DNA of 43,969 nucleotides from Escherichia phage SZH-1, in the sequence record NC_073319.1, one strand, 5' to 3'. Positions 6,134 through 43,969 of the stretch are shown here, piece by piece. Position 1 is the first letter of the stretch; every line of letters begins with the position of its first letter. Under the pieces are notes generated by a model. That model saw nothing but the letters and a program-made list of their open reading frames with translations. It was not told the DNA's origin and ran no database searches. The position numbers were made by a program, and so were the translations under genes.

Positions 6134-6164
6134 GAATAGTAGTCTATTCTATCCCAGTGTGCAA
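6134..6164 (-). promoter_or_regulatory. Promoter TTGCAC-N17-TACTAT with perfect dyad GAATAG-tagt-CTATTC over the -10
   Basis: -35 at 6159..6164, -10 at 6136..6141, dyad 6134..6149; one member of the repeated promoter-operator family. Confidence 0.5.
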
Positions 6165-7486: not shown

Positions 7487-7517
7487 GAATAGTATCCTAT
7501 TATGTTGGGGTATGCAA
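7487..7517 (-). promoter_or_regulatory. Leftward promoter TTGCAT-N17-TACTAT with dyad GAATAG-tatc-CTATT
   Basis: -35 at 7512..7517, -10 at 7489..7494; same motif family as 6134, 10923, 29405 and 38257. Confidence 0.5.
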
Positions 7518-7599
7518 GAGATTCATTGAAAATGGTTACGTTGCCGTTGCGATTCTTCAGGGAAGGTTGTGCCTTTATTCTTATTACTTGGTAACTAAA

Positions 7600-7620
7600 G
7601 GGCAGGCTTAAGGCCTGCCC
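7600..7620. promoter_or_regulatory. GC-rich hairpin in the divergent control region
   Basis: GGGCAGGC-ttaag-GCCTGCCC, an 8-bp perfect stem inside the 495-nt non-coding region. Confidence 0.35.
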
Positions 7621-7897
7621 AATAATCGTTACATTTTTACGGTTGCGAATCTACGGCACTTTAAGAAAATCAGATACTTAAGAGATTTGCTGCCGTTGAG
7701 AATAGAGCTTGCCCAGGGCAACCGGAGATACTTAGGAAGGAAAGTTACAATAATTCTCGTGTTCAGTAAGCCTGTGTTTAACCCTTTGCTTGTCGCACGG
7801 GTTAAACATTCTTACAAGGTGAACAGGAATCAAAGTAACTAAGATACAGAAGCACCTTAAACGAAGATTTTCATAATGTCAATAGGTGCGATTATGT

Positions 7898-7926
7898 TTG
7901 ATTTCCCATTATTCGCAATGTATACT
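7898..7926 (+). promoter_or_regulatory. Rightward promoter TTGATT-N17-TATACT for the replication operon
   Basis: Hexamers at 7898..7903 and 7921..7926, about 30 nt before the 7959 gene. Confidence 0.45.
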
Positions 7927-7958: not shown

Positions 7959-8129
7959 ATGACACAGAATGAAGTAGCTGAGCGTATCGGGGTTACTCGC
8001 CGCACGCTGAATAACTGGTTAAAGAGCGGGAAGTTCCCGGATTGTTGTATCCGCATTATGGGTCGCCGCCAGCCTGGTACGTTCGACCCGGAGAAAGTGG
8101 AAGCGTGGATTAAGGAGAACGTGAAATGA
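7959..8129 (+). CDS. AlpA-like HTH DNA-binding protein
   Basis: ATG at 7959 (listed ORF begins at TTG 7926); MTQNEVAERIGVTRRTLNNWLKSGKFP matches the AlpA/excisionase-type HTH pattern. Confidence 0.6.
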   Translation: MTQNEVAERIGVTRRTLNNWLKSGKFPDCCIRIMGRRQPGTFDPEKVEAWIKENVK

Positions 8130-10662: not shown

Positions 10663-10689
10663 TAAAAAGAAAGGGGCGTTAAGCCCCTT
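10663..10689 (-). terminator. Terminator of the XRE regulator transcript
   Basis: Hairpin AAGGGGC-gttaa-GCCCCTT overlapping the XRE stop codon, followed on the minus strand by TCTTTTT. Confidence 0.45.
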
Positions 10690-10894
10690 CACCGAACGCC
10701 AGCCACTTGGCGTCTACTTGCAGCACTTCCGCCAGTTTAAACAGCGTTGCCGGGCGGACGTCCTGAGTTACCCCGAGTGCGAGCTGGTTAATCGCACCCT
10801 GGGAAACGCCGGCCAGGACAGCCAGACGGCGCTGTGAGATGCCGAGTTCTTTACGGCGTTGTTCTACACGGATGCCTAGTTCAGATGGTTGCAT
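10679..10894 (-). CDS. XRE-family (Cro/CI-type) HTH transcriptional regulator
   Basis: RRKELGISQRRLAVLAGVSQGAINQLALG is a classic XRE HTH; AAGGAG RBS; divergent from a consensus promoter. Confidence 0.75.
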   Translation of the reverse strand: MQPSELGIRVEQRRKELGISQRRLAVLAGVSQGAINQLALGVTQDVRPATLFKLAEVLQVDAKWLAFGEGA

Positions 10895-10922
10895 GTTAAT
10901 TACTCCTTAGTCAGTTGATATG

Positions 10923-10937
10923 TGAATAGTACCATAT
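10923..10937 (-). promoter_or_regulatory. Operator-like dyad GAATAG-tacc-ATATT with TACTAT -10 upstream of the XRE gene
   Basis: -10-like TACTAT at 10925..10930 on the minus strand; no clear -35. Confidence 0.4.
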
Positions 10938-10958
10938 TAATTATTTTAGAAAAGCCCA

Positions 10959-10988
10959 TTGACAACCTGAATAGTTAGCTATTATAGT
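10959..10988 (+). promoter_or_regulatory. Near-consensus sigma70 promoter TTGACA-N17/18-TATAGT with dyad GAATAG-ttag-CTATT in the spacer
   Basis: TTGACA at 10959..10964, TATAGT at 10983..10988; near-identical copy at 13237. Confidence 0.65.
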
Positions 10989-11019
10989 TAGCCCATACCA
11001 AACGAGAGGAGAGAAACAA

Positions 11020-11508
11020 ATGTTAGAACAATTTTTAAAATTACTGGAACGTTTCGTAGTTGCGCACGAACTGATTGCCGCGAATAGCGTGAAACAACCT
11101 GTGTATGAACTTAAGGCAGATGTAAACATCGCAGATAGTGTTCGTGATGTTGTTGTGAAAGAAGTAACGAAAGAAATCCCGGTAGAAGGTGAAGACACCG
11201 TTGACACTAAACCAGCAGAAGAAGAGAAGCCGAAGCGCAAGCCGCGTAAAGCTAAAGTAGAGGAGCCAACGCCAGAGCCGGAAGAAGAGAAAGAAGAAGT
11301 CGATTACCAGTCTCTGCGCGACCAGATTCAGGCTATCGACGATGCAATTAACGAAGGTCCGAGCGATGCCGCGTGCGATGATTCCGATGAACTGCTGGAA
11401 GAGTTTACCGGTAAGAAGATGAAGATTGCTGCGATTAAAGACGAAGACCTGGCTGAGTACCTGGAACGCCTGACGGCAATCAAGAACAAGTATTTTGAAG
11501 AAGAATAA
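11020..11508 (+). CDS. Highly acidic protein (162 aa)
   Basis: Long D/E-rich stretches, ends ...KYFEEE; first gene downstream of the consensus promoter. Confidence 0.55.
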   Translation: MLEQFLKLLERFVVAHELIAANSVKQPVYELKADVNIADSVRDVVVKEVTKEIPVEGEDTVDTKPAEEEKPKRKPRKAKVEEPTPEPEEEKEEVDYQSLRDQIQAIDDAINEGPSDAACDDSDELLEEFTGKKMKIAAIKDEDLAEYLERLTAIKNKYFEEE

Positions 11509-13236: not shown

Positions 13237-13265
13237 TTGACACCTGAATAGTTAGCTATTATAGT
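13237..13265 (+). promoter_or_regulatory. Near-consensus sigma70 promoter TTGACA-N17-TATAGT with the same spacer dyad
   Basis: About 30 nt identical to the promoter at 10959; upstream of the SSB-like gene. Confidence 0.65.
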
Positions 13266-16642: not shown

Positions 16643-16791
16643 CAATGTTTGTATTTTGGACAATAGTAACCATGCTTGCACTGTTACTCGGGGCGGGAAT
16701 AGCCACGATGTTCTGTTATGGCCTGTTCTTTAAGTTTGTCGGTGTTGCCGTTCTAGGAGGGGCTTTCCTTACTTGGGTTCTACGCCCATGA
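16639..16791 (+). CDS. Hand-called tiny membrane peptide (50 aa)
   Basis: MTMFVFWTIVTMLALLLGAGIATMFCYG...; stop overlaps the VRR-NUC ATG. Confidence 0.3.
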   Translation: MTMFVFWTIVTMLALLLGAGIATMFCYGLFFKFVGVAVLGGAFLTWVLRP

Positions 16792-17102
16792 CTAAAGAGG
16801 GCCGCGTACAGAAATATGCAAAGGAGCGATTCGAGGCCCTTGGTGGCCTCGTTCGTAAACTTTCCTACGAGGGGCGTTCCGGCGCCCCTGACCTGCTGGC
16901 AATTCTCCCCGGCGGCGTCGTCTGGTTCGTCGAGGTTAAGAAAGACGAAAACACGAAGCCTGACCCCCACCAGCTACGTGAGCATGAGCGGATGCGCAAA
17001 CGTGGCGCAAATGTTTTTGTCGTTGGTTCGATAAAACAGATTGACACCCTAATAGCAGACTATTATAGTAAGCACATACCCCAACAATATAAGGAATTAT
17101 AA
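16788..17102 (+). CDS. VRR-NUC domain nuclease
   Basis: ATG at 16788 (listed ORF begins at TTG 16773); PD-(D/E)XK-like core ...PDLLAILPGGVVWFVEVKK... Confidence 0.65.
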   Translation: MTKEGRVQKYAKERFEALGGLVRKLSYEGRSGAPDLLAILPGGVVWFVEVKKDENTKPDPHQLREHERMRKRGANVFVVGSIKQIDTLIADYYSKHIPQQYKEL

Positions 17103-17103
17103 A

Positions 17104-17358
17104 ATGGCTATCGAACTTCAACTGTCAGTAAACACCATGATTATTGGTTCAATCGATTCATCTGTTCGTATCGGTAAATACACAGGGGCGTCAGTTAATT
17201 ACTCATGGTCTATGAAGGTTTCGGAAGTAAACCGTATCCTGGGTTTCGGGTCGGTTGGCCGCAAAGTGCTTGCGGAAGACGTAGCCAAACGGCTGTCCGT
17301 AGACTTCACAACGGCTGGAGAACTTATTAAGCAAGTTCAAGGCGAATTATCTAACTAA
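17104..17358 (+). CDS. Hypothetical protein (84 aa)
   Basis: ATG two nt after the upstream stop. Confidence 0.5.
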   Translation: MAIELQLSVNTMIIGSIDSSVRIGKYTGASVNYSWSMKVSEVNRILGFGSVGRKVLAEDVAKRLSVDFTTAGELIKQVQGELSN

Positions 17359-17397: not shown

Positions 17398-17589
17398 ATG
17401 AAACACGAATACGACCGCAAACCAGCACGTGACATCGTACCGGGCGACATGATTTTCAATGTTAAGACCCGTCGCCCTGTTGCCGTTGATACGGTGTACG
17501 TAGAGTCGAACGGTAAACTGGTTATCGAAGACGTAACCGGTAACGTTACGGCGTTCGGGCGTAAAGAGTTAGTTCTGGTGGCGAAATGA
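17398..17589 (+). CDS. Hypothetical protein (63 aa)
   Basis: ATG with AAGGAA RBS. Confidence 0.5.
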   Translation: MKHEYDRKPARDIVPGDMIFNVKTRRPVAVDTVYVESNGKLVIEDVTGNVTAFGRKELVLVAK

Positions 17590-18269
17590 TTATCTGGTCA
17601 TTGTTCGACGGTTCGGGCCTCATGGCCCAACCGTGGGCGGAAGCGGGCCATACTTGCTATTGTTTCAACTACGACGGTGCCGACCACGGCGACTACGCGC
17701 GATTGGGCGCAAAAGTTGAACACGAGAACATCCACTATATAAACGCGTGGATTGACAATAAATTCGACTTCGAGGTTGCGCCGGATATTATTTTTGCGTT
17801 CCCTCCGTGCACAGATTTAGCTGTTAGCGGCGCAGCGCATTTCGAAACGAAGCGGAAGAAGAATCCAACTTTTCAGGTAGAGGCCGTGATTACATGCAAA
17901 GCGGCTGCGCGTCTGGCTAAAAAGTACAACGTACCTTATATGATTGAGAACCCGGTTAGCGTTCTTTCGTCTTTATGGCGCAAGCCTGACTATTCGTTCA
18001 ATCCGTACGAATACGGCGGCTATTTACCCGAAGACGACACGCACCCAATGTTCCCCGAATACATAAAACCGCGGGACGCGTACCCTAAGAAGACATGTAT
18101 TTGGGCGGGTAACGGTTTTGTGATGCCCGTTAAATCATGTGTCGCCGTGGTTGATGGGTACTCCGACCAACACAATAAATTAGGCGGTAAATCGGTGAGG
18201 ACAAAAACAATACGCAGCCTTACCCCGCGTGGTTTCGCAAAAGCAGTTCATGAGGCCAATCATGTCTAA
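17586..18269 (+). CDS. Compact DNA (cytosine-5)-methyltransferase-like protein
   Basis: Motif I LFDGSG, motif IV FPPCTDLAVSG, motif VI ENPV, RSLTPRGFAKAV near the C-terminus; only 227 aa. Confidence 0.55.
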   Translation: MIIWSLFDGSGLMAQPWAEAGHTCYCFNYDGADHGDYARLGAKVEHENIHYINAWIDNKFDFEVAPDIIFAFPPCTDLAVSGAAHFETKRKKNPTFQVEAVITCKAAARLAKKYNVPYMIENPVSVLSSLWRKPDYSFNPYEYGGYLPEDDTHPMFPEYIKPRDAYPKKTCIWAGNGFVMPVKSCVAVVDGYSDQHNKLGGKSVRTKTIRSLTPRGFAKAVHEANHV

Positions 18270-29404: not shown

Positions 29405-29433
29405 TTGCACACCCCAATATAATAGGGTACTAT
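29405..29433 (+). promoter_or_regulatory. Promoter TTGCAC-N17-TACTAT with dyad AATAG-ggta-CTATT for the plus-strand island
   Basis: 27-nt core caccccaatataatagggtactattca identical to the copy at 38263. Confidence 0.5.
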
Positions 29434-29461
29434 TCACCTGTAACTTACTGAGGAAATAATT

Positions 29462-29788
29462 ATGCGTAAATTAGTGTTAGCTCTTGGTTTTATGTCTTTT
29501 GCTACTTTTGGGTCTCCGTGTGAACAGGTGTTTAGTGAATCCGTTCTTATGACTTCTGGTGTGCTTGATAGAGCCGACCCTACTATTGTAAAGGCATTTA
29601 AGGACTCTACAGTTCGCGAGTGTGAGGCCGCCGTGGAGGTTGGTAAATCGGGCCTACCCCCGCAGGCCGTAACCTACACAGTGATACGTTCGGTAGAGAA
29701 AAACGGAGATGCTTTCTATAGCCTACTGACAGCCACCCGTCTGCAAATGGTAATGACAGGGTGGGCGATAGGCGCAGAAAGTAAATAG
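29462..29788 (+). CDS. Secreted/periplasmic small protein (108 aa)
   Basis: Signal-peptide-like MRKLVLALGFMSFATFG; two Cys; GAGGAAA RBS. Confidence 0.55.
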   Translation: MRKLVLALGFMSFATFGSPCEQVFSESVLMTSGVLDRADPTIVKAFKDSTVRECEAAVEVGKSGLPPQAVTYTVIRSVEKNGDAFYSLLTATRLQMVMTGWAIGAESK

Positions 29789-29853
29789 TTGCCTTTATTT
29801 AAAGGAATCCACTGTGGTTAAATAGAACAAATCCTAAACACGAGGAAGTAAGC

Positions 29854-30984
29854 ATGGCCCAGAAGAAAATAACCGACGAACAGTTACAGGAAGAATTGAA
29901 CGCCGGGATGAAGAATGTAGACATCGCCCGTAAATACGGCATCTCAGACCGAGTTATTCGTATCCGTAAAGCGAAGCTGGCTAAGAAAGGTGTAGGCCAC
30001 GGGCGTGACGTTAGCCACCTTGTCCCAGACGGCTACAAGATTAAAGGGACGTCGTCTCTGGTAGACGAGTTCGGCAATACTAAGTTGCAATGGGTTAAGA
30101 CAGACACCGACGCTGAACGTCAGGTCGAGTTGATGAAAGCCGTGATTGAAGGCATGAAGTCAGAGATTACGCCAGTTGCGCCGGCTAAAGCGACTCGAGC
30201 CAAACGCGACGACAAGCTACTCAATCTTTACACGGTATCTGATTTCCATCTCGGTATGCTTGCCTGGGCCGACGAGAGCGGCGACGACTGGGATATAAAG
30301 ATTGCGGAAGACCTGTTCTCTCGTTGGTTCGACGCGGCGTTTCAGAAAGCACCGGATGCAGGAACAGGAGTTATTAACCTGCTGGGTGATTTCGCGCACT
30401 TCGATAGTCTGGATGCCGTTACACCTGAGTCGCGTCACGTGTTGGACGCAGACACTCGCTACCAGAAACTCGTCCGCTACATGATTCGTATGGTACGCCG
30501 TGTTGTAGATATGGCACTGGTTAAACATAAAAATGTTCGCTTGCTTATCGTACAGGGGAACCATGACCCTGTAGGCTCTGTATGGCTGGCTGAAATGTTC
30601 ACAGTTTTATATTCGAACGACAGCCGAGTGATTGTCGATACGTCGCCGGATGTTTACAAGATGGTGCAACACGGAAAAACGACGTTGTTCTTTCACCACG
30701 GGCATAAGGCGCGATTCGATGCTATCGAACCGGTTATGATTGCCAAATTCCGCAAAGCGTTCGGCGAGAGTGTTTACAGCTACGCCCACGTCGGCCACCT
30801 GCACCACCAGAAGATTGTAGAAAGCCGTAACATGATTGTTGAGCAACACCGCACCTTAGCGGCTAAAGACGCCTACGCCTCCCGCGGCGGATGGATGTCG
30901 GGCCGTAGTGCAAACGTAATTACTTATAGCGCCGAATATGGCGAGGTCGCGCGTTTAACTATTTCACCGGAGATGTTGGGATGA
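29854..30984 (+). CDS. HTH-fused calcineurin-like metallophosphoesterase
   Basis: N-terminal HTH NVDIARKYGISDRVIRIRKAKL; all five metallophosphoesterase motifs: SDFHLG, LLGDFAHFD, VQGNHD, FFHHGH, HVGHLHH. Confidence 0.75.
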   Translation: MAQKKITDEQLQEELNAGMKNVDIARKYGISDRVIRIRKAKLAKKGVGHGRDVSHLVPDGYKIKGTSSLVDEFGNTKLQWVKTDTDAERQVELMKAVIEGMKSEITPVAPAKATRAKRDDKLLNLYTVSDFHLGMLAWADESGDDWDIKIAEDLFSRWFDAAFQKAPDAGTGVINLLGDFAHFDSLDAVTPESRHVLDADTRYQKLVRYMIRMVRRVVDMALVKHKNVRLLIVQGNHDPVGSVWLAEMFTVLYSNDSRVIVDTSPDVYKMVQHGKTTLFFHHGHKARFDAIEPVMIAKFRKAFGESVYSYAHVGHLHHQKIVESRNMIVEQHRTLAAKDAYASRGGWMSGRSANVITYSAEYGEVARLTISPEMLG

Positions 30985-31211
30985 CTTCAAAATACAACCG
31001 CACAATGACAAACACCCACGGCAGCACTATGACTGTAGACGTTTACGATGTGCTGCGCGCCTTCGACATCCGCGACCCGGCGCTACAGCACGCATTGAAG
31101 AAGCTACTGTGTATGGGCCTTCGCGGACACAAGGATACCGGGACAGACTTAGCGGAAGCAATTGAAAGTCTGGAGAAGTTACAGGAGTACAGGAGTAACA
31201 TTGATGAGTAA
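30981..31211 (+). CDS. Hypothetical protein (76 aa)
   Basis: ATGA overlap with the phosphoesterase gene. Confidence 0.5.
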   Translation: MTSKYNRTMTNTHGSTMTVDVYDVLRAFDIRDPALQHALKKLLCMGLRGHKDTGTDLAEAIESLEKLQEYRSNIDE

Positions 31212-37952: not shown

Positions 37953-37982
37953 GATAAGTAAAGCCCCGCCTTAAAGCGGGGC
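37953..37982 (-). promoter_or_regulatory. GC-rich hairpin immediately 5' of the i-spanin RBS
   Basis: Minus-strand GCCCCGC-uuuaag-GCGGGGC followed by UUUACUU. Confidence 0.4.
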
Positions 37983-38161
37983 GCTAGGCCTTATCATTTA
38001 AACATAGAAACGGCGTAATCTCAGTAAACCAGTTACTTTTTACACAAGCAATAGAGTATGGCCCTTCCGAACGCGTCAGCGTAACTACACTCGGACTTAA
38101 CGTCCGGCTCCGTTACCTGCCACGCCGCGGTCGCTTGTTCATACTTCACAAGCTCAGGTGG

Positions 38162-38204
38162 AGCTTAGCACATTTTTGGTGAAAAGTCAACTATTCGAAT
38201 AGTT
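38162..38204 (-). promoter_or_regulatory. Candidate leftward promoter with perfect 16-bp palindrome AACTATTCGAATAGTT at the -35
   Basis: TTGACT (rc of 38185..38190), N17, TAAGCT; palindrome at 38189..38204. Confidence 0.3.
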
Positions 38205-38256: not shown

Positions 38257-38285
38257 TTGCGCACCCCAATATAATAGGGTACTAT
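38257..38285 (+). promoter_or_regulatory. Promoter TTGCGC-N17-TACTAT with dyad AATAG-ggta-CTATT for the lipoprotein unit
   Basis: Same 27-nt core as the promoter at 29405. Confidence 0.5.
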
Positions 38286-38312
38286 TCATTCTATCGAACC
38301 GGGGAGGCCGTC

Positions 38313-39313: not shown

Positions 39314-40356
39314 TATTCCCCTTTCAGATAATCAGCAACACGTTTATCGAGTTCCGCCATCTGCTTAAGCGTGAGCGGATTCCCGAAACCATCTACAGAT
39401 ATTACGCGAAACTCTTCCGGCGATATACCGCTGTTACGGAAAATCTTACCACGCACCGGGCCGAGCGCCTGGTCCTGAAACCACGCCGGTTGTTGTTTAA
39501 GGAACTCGTAATAGGTGGTGTCTGCGCTTACCTGGGTACCGCCGTCTGCGCCTTTAGCCGCGCGTTTAGCTCCTACGTCCAGGAAGTCGAACTCGGAACT
39601 TATCACCGGGGCTGTGGTACTTCGACAATTTGGATGCGCTGGCGGCATCGGGCCCTTACCGATTTCCCACGTCATTCCGTCTCTGGCCCTGCAAATCGTA
39701 CTGGTGCGGCTGTCCAGCGTTGACACCCACTCGTACTTCTCGATAATGTCGTCGTTCTGGCGATACGTCTCGTTACGTGCTTCGTTGGATACGTGGGACA
39801 GCGCAGTGCGGATTACGGTAGCTGCGTTACGCTCAGAGATGTCCGCCAGTCCACCAGCGCCTACGACATTTTTAACAATCTGCCGTGTGGTTTGGCCTTG
39901 TACGAAACCCATCTTAACGCCAGTTACCAGGCGCGCGACCTCCGTTTCACCCCAGCCAGACATCAGCTTCGTGAAATCAACAGGCTTGTCACTTAACGAT
40001 AATGGCTGAAACTCGGCAGCGGCCCACACCTGTTCTGCGGTAGGCGTAACAAATTCCGCGTTAACGTTAGCCGTCAGCGTCTTTACGTTCCACTCAGCCT
40101 CATATGCCACCAGTTCCTTAAGGTCTTCTGTCAGTTTTGTTTGCCAGTCACCGGTAAGTCCTGCCAGTGCTTCTTCGAGGTCGCGTAACAGTTTATTCAG
40201 TCGCGCGGTGCTTCGCCCGTCGTCGCCAAATAACAGCACCTGCCGTTTTATTTCGTCCCGCATCTCCTGGACGAACGGTGCGAGGTCTTTCACTTCGCCG
40301 GATGCGGTGCGTTGCAGCCAAATCTGGTGGCTGATTAGGGATGTAAGTAGTGGCAT
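39313..40356 (-). CDS. Minor head / head morphogenesis protein (Mu gpF / SPP1 gp7 family)
   Basis: RARDGMTWEIGKGPMPPAHPNCRSTT matches the Mu-F family signature. Confidence 0.8.
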   Translation of the reverse strand: MPLLTSLISHQIWLQRTASGEVKDLAPFVQEMRDEIKRQVLLFGDDGRSTARLNKLLRDLEEALAGLTGDWQTKLTEDLKELVAYEAEWNVKTLTANVNAEFVTPTAEQVWAAAEFQPLSLSDKPVDFTKLMSGWGETEVARLVTGVKMGFVQGQTTRQIVKNVVGAGGLADISERNAATVIRTALSHVSNEARNETYRQNDDIIEKYEWVSTLDSRTSTICRARDGMTWEIGKGPMPPAHPNCRSTTAPVISSEFDFLDVGAKRAAKGADGGTQVSADTTYYEFLKQQPAWFQDQALGPVRGKIFRNSGISPEEFRVISVDGFGNPLTLKQMAELDKRVADYLKGE

Positions 40357-42134: not shown

Positions 42135-43385
42135 TTAAAGTGCGAAAGTCACCGGGATGTTGATTACTGGTTTAGCCACCGGCATCTCATAAACTACAGG
42201 ATAGCCGAGAGCATCTGCCATATGGTCAATGATGCCGTCTTTAGCTGGCTCTCCATTATCGTCGTATGCCTGCTGCTCCAGCGTCTTCGCTATCTCAGGG
42301 CATAAGTGGTCGTTAATCCACAGCTTACCTTTTTCCAGCGCGGTATTCACCGCTAAAACACGGTCTTTAACCGGGGGGTTGGCGGATTTAGCGCGAACAT
42401 CAAAACCGGCCTGCTGTAGTAAGGCGATATCAGAGATTGATGCCGAGTTGGTTTTGCGGTTCTTGCCGCTGGCGTCGGGGTAAACGACGATGCGGTGGCC
42501 CTGCGACTTCCACTTCTCGGTAATTACCCGCACGGTGTCTGGTGTATCGAACAGGCCTTTCAGTTCTGCAACCGCGTGCCAGCCGTCTTTACGCTGTACA
42601 TATACAGCGCTTGCGTTCTTCGTAACGTTGAAGTCCTGACCGATGTACAGAGTGTCGCCCGGTTGAATTGTCTCTTTGCTGCGGTGTTTATGGCGGTCAT
42701 AGGCATAATATACGCTGCCAGAGGTAAGGTTAACGAACTCCCCGTTCAGATACGCGTTAATCAGTTGCGCCGGGTAAGTCTCTGTCAGCGAGCTAATGTA
42801 ATCCGGCGGCAGGAATCGCGCATTCTCATGTGTGGAAGCCTGCACCATCGAGTAACTTGGCGTCGGATTATCTTTAAACTTGGCGAAGACGAACTTGAAC
42901 CCTTCCGGCGTCGTGGTAACAGAGATGTGGTTAGTTACGCCCGGGATAACCAGACGCATACGGGCCACAATTTTGTTCCACGCCAGTTCAGCTTTCTCGC
43001 GACTCAATACGTCCAGCTCGTCCACGACCGCAGCGGCGATTTTGAAGCCGACTATCGAACCGGGGTTATCCATCGAACGGCAGATAACAGTACCGAGCAC
43101 CGTCTTACCCCGAGTAACCACAACCTCTTTGTCGCCGGATTTAACCAGCACATCAAGGCCGAGCAGGTTAGCCGCCTCCTCGAATGTTGGGTAGAAGATG
43201 TCGCGTATGGCCGGGTATGTCGGGCCGAAGTAGCCAAGGCGCGTACCAGGGTGCTTTAGCATAAAAGTAAGCAGGTCAAGGCAGCCGACGAAGGTCTTGC
43301 CACTGCCGAAGCCGCCGACATAGGCCTTGTATTTGTTATCGCAATTCAGAAACAACGCCTGAGGGGCCGATAGCTGGATACTCAT
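42135..43385 (-). CDS. Terminase large subunit
   Basis: Walker A GGFGSGKT near the N-terminus; ATGA-coupled to the upstream small-subunit gene. Confidence 0.9.
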   Translation of the reverse strand: MSIQLSAPQALFLNCDNKYKAYVGGFGSGKTFVGCLDLLTFMLKHPGTRLGYFGPTYPAIRDIFYPTFEEAANLLGLDVLVKSGDKEVVVTRGKTVLGTVICRSMDNPGSIVGFKIAAAVVDELDVLSREKAELAWNKIVARMRLVIPGVTNHISVTTTPEGFKFVFAKFKDNPTPSYSMVQASTHENARFLPPDYISSLTETYPAQLINAYLNGEFVNLTSGSVYYAYDRHKHRSKETIQPGDTLYIGQDFNVTKNASAVYVQRKDGWHAVAELKGLFDTPDTVRVITEKWKSQGHRIVVYPDASGKNRKTNSASISDIALLQQAGFDVRAKSANPPVKDRVLAVNTALEKGKLWINDHLCPEIAKTLEQQAYDDNGEPAKDGIIDHMADALGYPVVYEMPVAKPVINIPVTFAL

Positions 43386-43927
43386 TCCTCCACCTCGCCC
43401 ATATTCGTTGTTACTATTTTACCTACAGGCTCCGCGACACTGAAAATAATCTCGGTCGGTGCCGGTTCTTCGGTGGATTCGACTGGTTTATCTTTGCCAA
43501 GACCCAGCTTAGCCGCGGCAAATCGAGCCGAGATGCCGATTGCCCCGTTTTCTAAGAAGTAGGCCTCTTCAAGCGCTTTCGCGGTTTCGTAGGCTTCAGC
43601 AAATGCAGGAATCTCGCGCAGCCACAGATTAATAATCGGGATAGTTACCCCTATGTGTAGTGCGAATCGGACCAGTGATGGTGGTTTATCCTGCATAAGA
43701 GCGCGTTTTTCACCTTTCGGCGTAAGCTCGAATTCCCATGACGTGCGGTCGAAGAAACGAATCAATTCGTCACAATAGTCCGGGTCCCACAACGCAGCGG
43801 AATTACGGGATGATTGATAAAGGCTCTGTTTACCGCGCGGTCGTTTACGGCGACGGTTTGCGCTAACAGCTTCTTCATGTGCAGCTTGCACCACCTCTGG
43901 CGATGGTTGCTTAAGTTTCAGCTTCAT
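43382..43927 (-). CDS. Terminase small subunit (putative)
   Basis: ATG at 43927 with AAGGGGA RBS (listed ORF begins at 43966); position and size fit TerS. Confidence 0.55.
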   Translation of the reverse strand: MKLKLKQPSPEVVQAAHEEAVSANRRRKRPRGKQSLYQSSRNSAALWDPDYCDELIRFFDRTSWEFELTPKGEKRALMQDKPPSLVRFALHIGVTIPIINLWLREIPAFAEAYETAKALEEAYFLENGAIGISARFAAAKLGLGKDKPVESTEEPAPTEIIFSVAEPVGKIVTTNMGEVEE

Positions 43928-43969
43928 AGAATCCCCTTGCATATGCGTCTGACCATCAGAGCGCATCAG

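Follow-up and report, generated by a model that had tools for sequence, protein, structure and literature searches.

The locus considered here is a small regulator gene, together with the DNA around it, in Escherichia phage SZH-1 (NC_073319.1), whose 43,969 nucleotides we refer to throughout as the window. The gene, called XRE below, encodes a Cro-like protein and is transcribed away from a replication operon across an intergenic region of 125 bp. That region holds two related 14-bp dyads, each within the core of one of the two divergent promoters. The features of the locus are as follows.

10679-10894, - strand: XRE/Cro-like gene, an open reading frame (ORF) of 71 amino acids, monocistronic, between its own promoter and a hairpin terminator
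10903-10908, - strand: ribosome-binding site AAGGAG, 8 nt 5' of the XRE ATG, read from the sequence
10670-10690, between the convergent helicase-primase and XRE genes: G+C-rich hairpin found in the terminator scan, apparently the XRE terminator
10925-10938: candidate operator O-xre, AATAGTACCATATT, one half-site mismatch, overlapping the extended -10 of the XRE promoter
10959-10988, + strand: rightward promoter TTGACA-18-TATAGT, 11 of 12 consensus positions, -35 at 10959-10964 and -10 at 10983-10988
10970-10983: candidate operator O-R, AATAGTTAGCTATT, a perfect dyad that fills the spacer of the rightward promoter and touches its -10
11020-11508, + strand: first gene of the rightward operon, encoding an acidic protein of 162 amino acids (PHROG 3127, unknown function)

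The rightward promoter serves the replication operon that begins at 11020, in which the acidic protein, for which Pfam and PHROG return no helix-turn-helix (HTH) domain, is followed by genes for an exonuclease, an SSB and a DNA polymerase. The XRE promoter consists of an extended -10 element, TGgTACTAT at 10926-10934 on the - strand, with a weak -35. The centers of O-R and O-xre lie 45 bp apart, with one dyad to each promoter, and the O-xre half-sites are invariant in 27 distinct orthologous sequences. A leftward promoter based on the perfect TATAAT on the bottom strand of O-R was considered and set aside by eye, having neither a usable -35 nor a TGn. The terminator scan reports the hairpin at 10670-10690 on the - strand only; judging by its position alone, the helicase-primase transcript may use it as well. 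A first-pass annotation of this DNA had described a Cro/CI-type HTH gene divergent from a near-consensus rightward promoter, and in this it was correct. It also called that promoter the strongest, a rank that is in fact shared, since the promoters at 13237 and 17041 likewise match at 11 of 12 positions, with optimal 17-nt spacers. The operator-like dyad that it placed between the two genes is present, but as two dyads, one per promoter core, rather than one.

The XRE protein is a bona fide Cro/CI-type HTH protein. It matches the Pfam family HTH_3 at E=1.2e-12 (48.1 bits against a cut-off of 23), and its best sequence match in the PDB is 434 Cro (E=4.9e-7). An AlphaFold2 model has five helices and a pLDDT of 79.5; the top Foldseek match to this model in the PDB is 2cro, again 434 Cro, with a TM score of 0.73-0.79, followed by 434 repressor, SinR, C proteins and P22 c2. 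A Pfam search finds no CI-type C-terminal domain in the 71 residues. Across 29 Kagunavirus alleles we count 70 synonymous and 13 nonsynonymous codon variants, a pattern that points to strong purifying selection, and residues 29-46, which include the entire recognition helix, do not vary among homologues down to 77% identity. The gene occurs in every Guernseyvirinae-like genome or locus that we examined, in seven XRE types, and in several hundred related phage records; by organism name there are about 480 Guernseyvirinae genomes. Annotation within the subfamily varies between 'transcriptional repressor', 'DicA' and 'hypothetical', and some papers list the gene yet state that no repressor is present.

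Temporal RNA-seq is available for Kagunavirus K1B4, which is closely related to phage ST20, whose XRE matches that of the window exactly. The K1B4 study reports a 216-nt + strand gene, _004, annotated 'specific DNA binding', placed in the 'middle' class and located between the acidic-protein and helicase-primase genes (PMC12645636). Judged by size and position, _004 is the counterpart of XRE, which would make XRE a functional gene that is transcribed during infection.

The two dyads at the XRE locus belong to a larger set. When at most one mismatch is allowed, the window has 11 copies of AATAG-N4-CTATT, whereas 100 shuffles gave 1.0 +/- 0.9 and never more than 3. The motif also comes first in an unbiased census that counted every 5-mer dyad with a spacer of 0-8, with seven exact copies where 0.04 are expected. 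A census that allowed one mismatch was swamped by GC-rich, codon-periodic coding patterns, and was replaced by comparison of orthologous promoters and targeted counts. A weight-matrix scan isolates ten sites that score at least 15.9 bits, the next-best scoring 9.8. All ten overlap promoter cores, and nine are intergenic, the exception being the site at 17051, in the last 50 nt of ORF 16773-17102. Besides O-xre and O-R, the sites are the following.

2718-2731, - strand: class C dyad with one mismatch, the -35 TTGACT of TTGACT-17-TATATT in its center, directed toward the terminase genes
6135-6148, - strand: class A dyad on the -10 of TTGCAC-17-TACTAT, a second leftward promoter, early genes
7488-7501, - strand: class A dyad AATAGGATACTATT (read on the - strand), covering the -10 of TTGCAT-17-TACTAT, leftward early operon
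13247-13260, + strand: class B dyad in the spacer of TTGACA-17-TATAGT, 5' of a DUF2815 SSB-like gene
17051-17064, + strand: class B dyad AATAGCAGACTATT in the spacer of TTGACA-17-TATAGT, at the 3' end of ORF 16773-17102
29421-29434, + strand: class A dyad AATAGGGTACTATT on the -10 of TTGCAC-17-TACTAT, in front of a three-gene island
38182-38195, - strand: class C dyad AATAGTTGACTTTT (on the - strand), the -35 in its center, directed toward spanin and head genes
38273-38286, + strand: class A dyad, identical to that at 29421, on the -10 of TTGCGC-17-TACTAT

These ten sites fall into three arrangements on sigma-70-type promoters. In class A, at 6135, 7488, 29421, 38273 and the XRE promoter itself (10925), the right half of the dyad is the -10 hexamer TACTAT, in the four promoters other than that of XRE of the general form TTGCAC/T-17-TACTAT. 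In class B the dyad occupies the spacer of TTGACA-17/18-TATAGT, and the sites at 10970, 13247 and 17051 mark the three rightward replication operon promoters; the promoter at 13247 is orthologous across 8 clades, and that at 17051 lies upstream of a gene at 17104. In class C the -35 hexamer TTGACT sits at the center of the dyad, and both members, at 2718 and 38182 on the - strand, point toward late genes. Upstream of the 2718 site on the - strand are the endolysin gene and a T-run hairpin (approximately 2765-2795, from the sequence), and the class C form of this site is also kept in Jerseyvirus Ent1. The promoter at 38273 serves small + strand genes within the head module. Operator quality is lowest at the XRE promoter and at both class C promoters, where one half-site position is mismatched in each case. 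We also observed that the promoters at 29410-29436 and 38262-38288 share an identical 27-nt core, CACCCCAATATAATAGGGTACTATTCA, of which the promoter at 7488 is a close variant, and that the conserved ACCCCAA in the spacer extends past the dyad.

The pattern of conservation within the dyads resembles a protein footprint. For six sites, each represented by 22-29 distinct orthologous sequences drawn from 30 Kagunavirus loci, we counted departures from the window. These are seen at half-site positions in 0-2% of the distinct sequences, at the four center positions in 3-30% (16-30% at three of the four), and in the flank immediately upstream in 22-34%. Proteins of the 434 and P22 type bind dyads of 14-18 bp whose center is not contacted, and the pattern seen here fits the operator of a dimeric HTH protein with an uncontacted center. 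Since sigma-70 does not require specific bases in the spacer, where the class B dyads lie, the conservation of their half-sites cannot be attributed to sigma-70 contacts.

Comparison with related phages bears on which protein binds the dyad. AATAG-N4-CTATT is kept at orthologous promoters in Jerseyvirus Ent1, whose XRE is 51% identical to that of the window, and in Serratia phage Tsm2, whose XRE is approximately 41-42% identical. Other clades carry variants: IMG/VR locus L046 has AATAC-N4-GTATT at the XRE promoter, the divergent promoter and two further promoters, and loci L051 and L059 have TTAGC-N2-GCTAA, with 3 exact copies and 5 with at most one mismatch per 20 kb, both XRE-flanking promoters included. 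Salmonella phage STP-1 has no AATAG-type site, and at the same orthologous promoters it has A(T/A)TA(G/C)-N4-type dyads on promoters with the -10 TAATAT. Because Jerseyvirus and STP-1 both infect Salmonella and yet differ in their dyads, a host factor is unlikely to be the binder. OxyR, which recognizes ATAG-N7-CTAT, was considered as a host factor of this kind and rejected: the spacing is wrong and clade-specific variants are left unexplained. Among phage proteins, no homologue of HTH_17, p77 or a 63-residue protein is detected in Tsm2, STP-1 or the other clades. Of the small candidate regulators in the window, XRE alone is present in all compared clades; it is also the only HTH gene that all of them have, and it is always flanked by two operators. 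Since the dyad varies by clade, as XRE itself does, always stands beside XRE in two copies, and has XRE as the sole small candidate regulator shared by all clades, XRE is likely to be the factor that binds it. One further phage, Klebsiella phage klb_E (XRE 45% identical), shows no enriched AT-rich dyad and a single, chance-level match of the AATAG type, its top dyads being GC-rich; judged without a synteny check, it is probably a non-relative.

The window comprises a whole genome. A 3-kb query around the XRE locus returned 445 phage records, headed by Escherichia phage BUCT823 and Shigella phage phiSD1 at approximately 94% identity; many records of Kagunavirus and Jerseyvirus rank lower. The last 1.5 kb and the first 1.5 kb of the window, when joined, give an unbroken 3000-nt alignment to phiSD1 at 96%. 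Because end and start are contiguous over this length in phiSD1, we regard the 43,969 bases as a complete, circularly permuted Kagunavirus genome. The absence of integrase and partition genes, noted in the first pass, can thus be stated for a complete genome: no integrase, recombinase or partition gene appears in the phiSD1 annotation (39,026 of 42,072 bp; 69 of 73 features) or in Pfam and PHROG scans of selected ORFs, not every ORF having been scanned. The scanned set included the two largest unassigned ORFs, which prove to encode a 227-residue methyltransferase and a 376-residue SbcD-like exonuclease. Nor were prophage-maintenance genes found. An Xis/MerR-like HTH_17 gene does exist, at 7959-8129, without an integrase partner. 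Published relatives and isolates are described as strictly lytic, and clear plaques are reported for phage GF04. In a collection of 5.8 billion proteins, XRE homologues (at least 77% identity) are confined to contigs of at most 45.3 kb and are never chromosomal; this search gave only such close relatives and is uninformative on the deep origin of XRE.

Taken together, we think it reasonably probable that XRE is a 434-Cro-like dimeric repressor of AATAG-N4-CTATT that regulates its own synthesis and damps most phage promoters during lytic growth. Upon infection, all dyad-bearing promoters would fire at first, and XRE would accumulate from its own weak promoter with an imperfect operator. By binding its operators, XRE would then occlude RNA polymerase, so that early, replication and accessory transcription is damped or shut off, while negative autoregulation caps the level of XRE itself. 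In other words, XRE would act as a governor or timer of the lytic cycle rather than as a lysogeny switch. One may speculate that operator quality, with mismatches at the XRE promoter and the class C promoters, could set a hierarchy of repression. Control of lytic timing, which the first pass had offered as one possibility, becomes the best-supported interpretation, and its scope of about ten promoters goes far beyond the 340 bp originally flagged.

Several observations weigh against this interpretation. The binding of the dyads by XRE is a prediction from sequence. The seven XRE types yield no simple code that relates recognition helix to half-site: the helices read VSQGAINQ in Kagunavirus, VSQSLITH in Jerseyvirus, VSQGMLNH in Tsm2, MTQGGIGH in L046, FSQGRVSH in L048, VTQSAISH in STP-1 and ASQGYISH in L051, and thus those of Kagunavirus and Jerseyvirus differ although both phages have AATAG, while that of STP-1 is near to Jerseyvirus although their dyads differ. 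In the STP-1 and L048 clades, moreover, the symmetry of the dyads is weak and the sites are heterogeneous. The right half-sites of class A double as -10 hexamers, and a part of their conservation is promoter function. Class C operators sit on two promoters that lead into late operons, and if XRE represses nearly every promoter, continued expression of the late genes is hard to account for. Finally, the time classes of the K1B4 study are coarse (PMC12645636).

Three of these difficulties, namely binding as a prediction, the lack of clean covariation between helix and operator type, and the double duty of the class A half-sites, are also what lends substance to the most durable alternative, in which another phage or host protein binds the dyad, or the dyad is purely an element of promoter architecture, and XRE is only a local autoregulator or acts on host genes. 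The promoters do share further conserved spacer sequence, for example ACCCCAATAT, which also favors it. This alternative nevertheless seems to us unlikely. At class B promoters the dyad is wholly within the spacer, which is free of base-specific demands from sigma-70; conservation is limited to the half-sites, with the left half conserved symmetrically; the dyad type varies between phages of one host genus; the HTH_17, p77 and 63-residue proteins are all absent from Tsm2, which keeps AATAG dyads; and the geometry suits a dimer of the 434/P22 class.

A bolder extension of the repressor model, to which we would give a small chance, is that a virulent phage family runs nearly its whole sigma-70 programme through one Cro-sized repressor, either as a titration timer or gene-dosage governor, which is conceivable because the operators multiply as the genome replicates, or as a means of reversible silencing of the whole genome. 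Taken by itself, silencing at the ten or so operators would imply a non-integrated carrier or pseudolysogenic state, or superinfection immunity to related phages, and we regard it as a similarly long shot. Such silencing would recall the dispersed-operator repressors of P1, L5 and phiC31, although integrase and partition functions are lacking. The operators are indeed found on early, replication, accessory and late-leading promoters, the nearest relatives of XRE outside these phages are CI-type repressors with Peptidase_S24, and Kagunavirus, Jerseyvirus and Tsm2 share an operator type, which makes cross-immunity conceivable. Jerseyviruses hold other temperate-like remnants in the form of RDF-like and Ant-like genes (PMC9409062). 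Against silencing stand the complete genome with no integrase, partition or plasmid-maintenance gene in the phiSD1 annotation or the ORFs scanned, the restriction of XRE homologues to contigs no longer than a phage genome, the lytic behavior reported for isolates together with the clear plaques of GF04, the lack of an oligomerization or sensor domain in the XRE protein, and a helicase-primase operon promoter that appears to be uncontrolled.

The suggestion in the first-pass annotation that the locus may be a relic, here taken to mean that XRE and the neighboring dyad are the decaying remains of the immunity region of a temperate ancestor, accords with a Cro-sized protein related to CI N-terminal domains and with the missing integrase, but it is very improbable for a gene under such strong purifying selection, with an invariant HTH segment, that is found in all seven types and the several hundred related phage records, is transcribed during infection, and is accompanied by ten maintained operator copies conserved genome-wide. 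Hardly credible, finally, is a role for XRE in another kind of small-XRE system, as the C protein of a restriction-modification system or a HipB/HigA-type antitoxin: fold matches do include C.BclI, C.AhdI, HipB and HigA, and a DNA methyltransferase gene is present at 17586-18269, but that gene is 6.7 kb distant and in another operon, XRE is monocistronic with no co-transcribed endonuclease or toxin, no second ORF in 10670-10940 and no adjacent endonuclease gene, and a local C-box or toxin-antitoxin operator is not consistent with ten sites dispersed over the genome.

If XRE represses through the dyad, promoters that lack a dyad would lie outside its reach. At least two candidate promoters are of this kind and would escape XRE control.

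7898-7926, + strand: candidate promoter TTGATT-17-TATACT, without a dyad, of the HTH_17/helicase-primase operon
7959-8129, + strand: HTH_17 gene, 56 amino acids, Xis/MerR-like, PHROG 66 'excisionase and transcriptional regulator', heading the helicase-primase operon
53-24, - strand: candidate promoter TGTACA-18-TATAAT, without a dyad, after a T-run hairpin (approximately 55-77, from the sequence)

The true start of HTH_17 is probably the ATG at 7959 and not the TTG at 7926. In K1B4, _008 is the only gene annotated 'early' by RNA-seq (PMC12645636), and its position and size match those of HTH_17. The promoter at 53-24 lies upstream of the small terminase gene (43382-43966), across the circular junction, and may be an XRE-independent late promoter. 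Comparable promoters, TTGCCT-17-TATAAT, stand before the small terminase gene in STP-1 (18904) and, in Tsm2 (15294), before the gene that immediately precedes the one for the large terminase. A further match without a dyad, TTGACA-16-GATAAT at 39720-39747 (+ strand, 11 of 12), lies inside a head-morphogenesis gene on the opposite strand and is probably due to chance.

Several neighboring regions have features of their own. Between the leftward early operon and the HTH_17/helicase-primase operon is an unusually long non-coding stretch of approximately 420 bp (7502-7925) with three TGCCGTTGCGA-like repeats (7542, 7638 and 7691), two copies of AGATACTTAAGA, a perfect 10-bp hairpin at 7775-7808 and a terminator-like hairpin at 7600-7620; this stretch adjoins the replication initiator genes and may be an origin or iteron region. 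The island at 29462-31211 (+ strand), which lies between the tail and head modules on the opposite strand and has a dyad-bearing promoter, encodes a 108-residue protein of unknown function, the 376-residue SbcD-like DNA repair exonuclease (PHROG 704, E=1.5e-162) and a 76-residue protein, also of unknown function. Downstream of the class C promoter at 38182-38195, approximately 190 nt (37960-38152, - strand) are free of genes in the phiSD1 annotation, and a strong hairpin (37963-37982) closes this segment immediately ahead of the spanin gene. The predicted fold of the segment has an energy of -67.3 kcal/mol (z = -2.3), and a structured leader, an attenuator and a small RNA are all conceivable; Rfam has no match in it or anywhere else in the window.

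The arrangement of the locus in other clades offers some indication of its history. Outside the Guernseyvirinae-like phages, the nearest relatives of XRE in IMG/VR are CI-type repressors with Peptidase_S24, and because of this the XRE domain is suggested to be of temperate-phage origin. In STP-1 (locus L005, 10271-13161) and Tsm2 (locus L006, 6799-9567), XRE is the first gene of the helicase-primase operon, which is a Cro-like position; the helicase-primase there is approximately 29-33% identical to that of the window, and HTH_17 and p77 are missing. Kagunavirus and Jerseyvirus have a different helicase-primase module, with HTH_17 and p77, that is convergent with XRE. The replication-initiator module of STP-1 and Tsm2 is swapped or inverted relative to that of Kagunavirus and Jerseyvirus. 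The divergent orientation of XRE and the replication genes is conserved across the clades examined, and the acidic-protein gene is the immediate divergent neighbor in most of them, with at least one small gene intervening in STP-1 and Tsm2.

The Guernseyvirinae, Kagunavirus and Jerseyvirus among them, are among the phages most often isolated as candidates for therapy and biocontrol. An operator regulon of the kind proposed would explain the presence of a 'repressor' in a lytic phage, and it bears on safety assessments in which repressors are treated as markers of lysogeny. It would also provide a testable model of temporal control for a small siphovirus that already serves as a synthetic-biology chassis. 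In addition, it would yield a small collection of promoters that can be repressed, built in three different ways, for which related clades hold natural variants of differing specificity. Were silencing to occur, one would expect a carrier state, and phages of the Kagunavirus, Jerseyvirus and Tsm2-like groups would be immune to one another, with operator and repressor specificities diversifying between clades in the manner of immunity groups; such predicted cross-immunity groups could matter for the design of phage cocktails. The literature that we searched holds no account of these promoters and operators, although the Jerseyvirinae taxonomy paper was outside that search and may contain a prior mention.

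Comparison with known systems helps to define what the XRE locus is. The first-pass annotation had called it a compact genetic switch, but bistability is unsupported and the resemblance to the lambdoid CI/Cro switch does not extend far: in place of two antagonistic repressors there is a single one, the other HTH gene (HTH_17) being 2.7 kb away; each promoter has one dyad rather than a tripartite operator; the protein lacks the C-terminal domain through which CI binds cooperatively; and no integrase/excisionase or maintenance module turned up in the phiSD1 annotation or among the ORFs scanned. The likeness to 434 Cro is much closer. Both proteins have 71 amino acids and a five-helix HTH_3 fold, with approximately 38-41% identity in structural alignments, and the Gln that begins the recognition helix is kept (Q32 of XRE corresponds to Q28 of 434) and is invariant in four clades. 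The candidate operator is likewise 14 bp long, a dyad in which the outer bases are conserved and the center varies, and it overlaps promoter cores. Unlike 434 Cro, however, XRE does not head a PR operon but is transcribed divergently, under a promoter of its own; it has neither a partner CI nor tripartite OR and OL, its half-site is AATAG rather than ACAA, and its operators are spread over some ten promoters of a phage without lysogeny genes.

Virulent derivatives of temperate phages can keep cro-like genes or other remnants of lysogeny, as do the Sfi-type phages of Streptococcus thermophilus and mycobacteriophage D29. The SZH-1 genome resembles these in being that of a lytic phage with pieces of an immunity region, but differs in that the regulator and a coherent set of operators appear to be under selection across a subfamily, co-varying between clades, and are not the remnant of a recent deletion. 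Closer in overall design are P1 C1, gp71 of mycobacteriophage L5 with its stoperators, and the phiC31 c repressor with its conserved inverted repeats, in each of which one repressor serves many scattered operators at or near promoters and so controls most transcription. Those phages are temperate and maintain prophages, their repressors are larger and belong to other protein types, and the sites in L5 and P1 lack symmetry. The ten XRE-dyad sites share with them the multiplicity of promoter-located operators, whereas in the Kagunavirus genome the phage is lytic, the regulator is a minimal, Cro-sized HTH protein, and the dyad is built into the core of each promoter.

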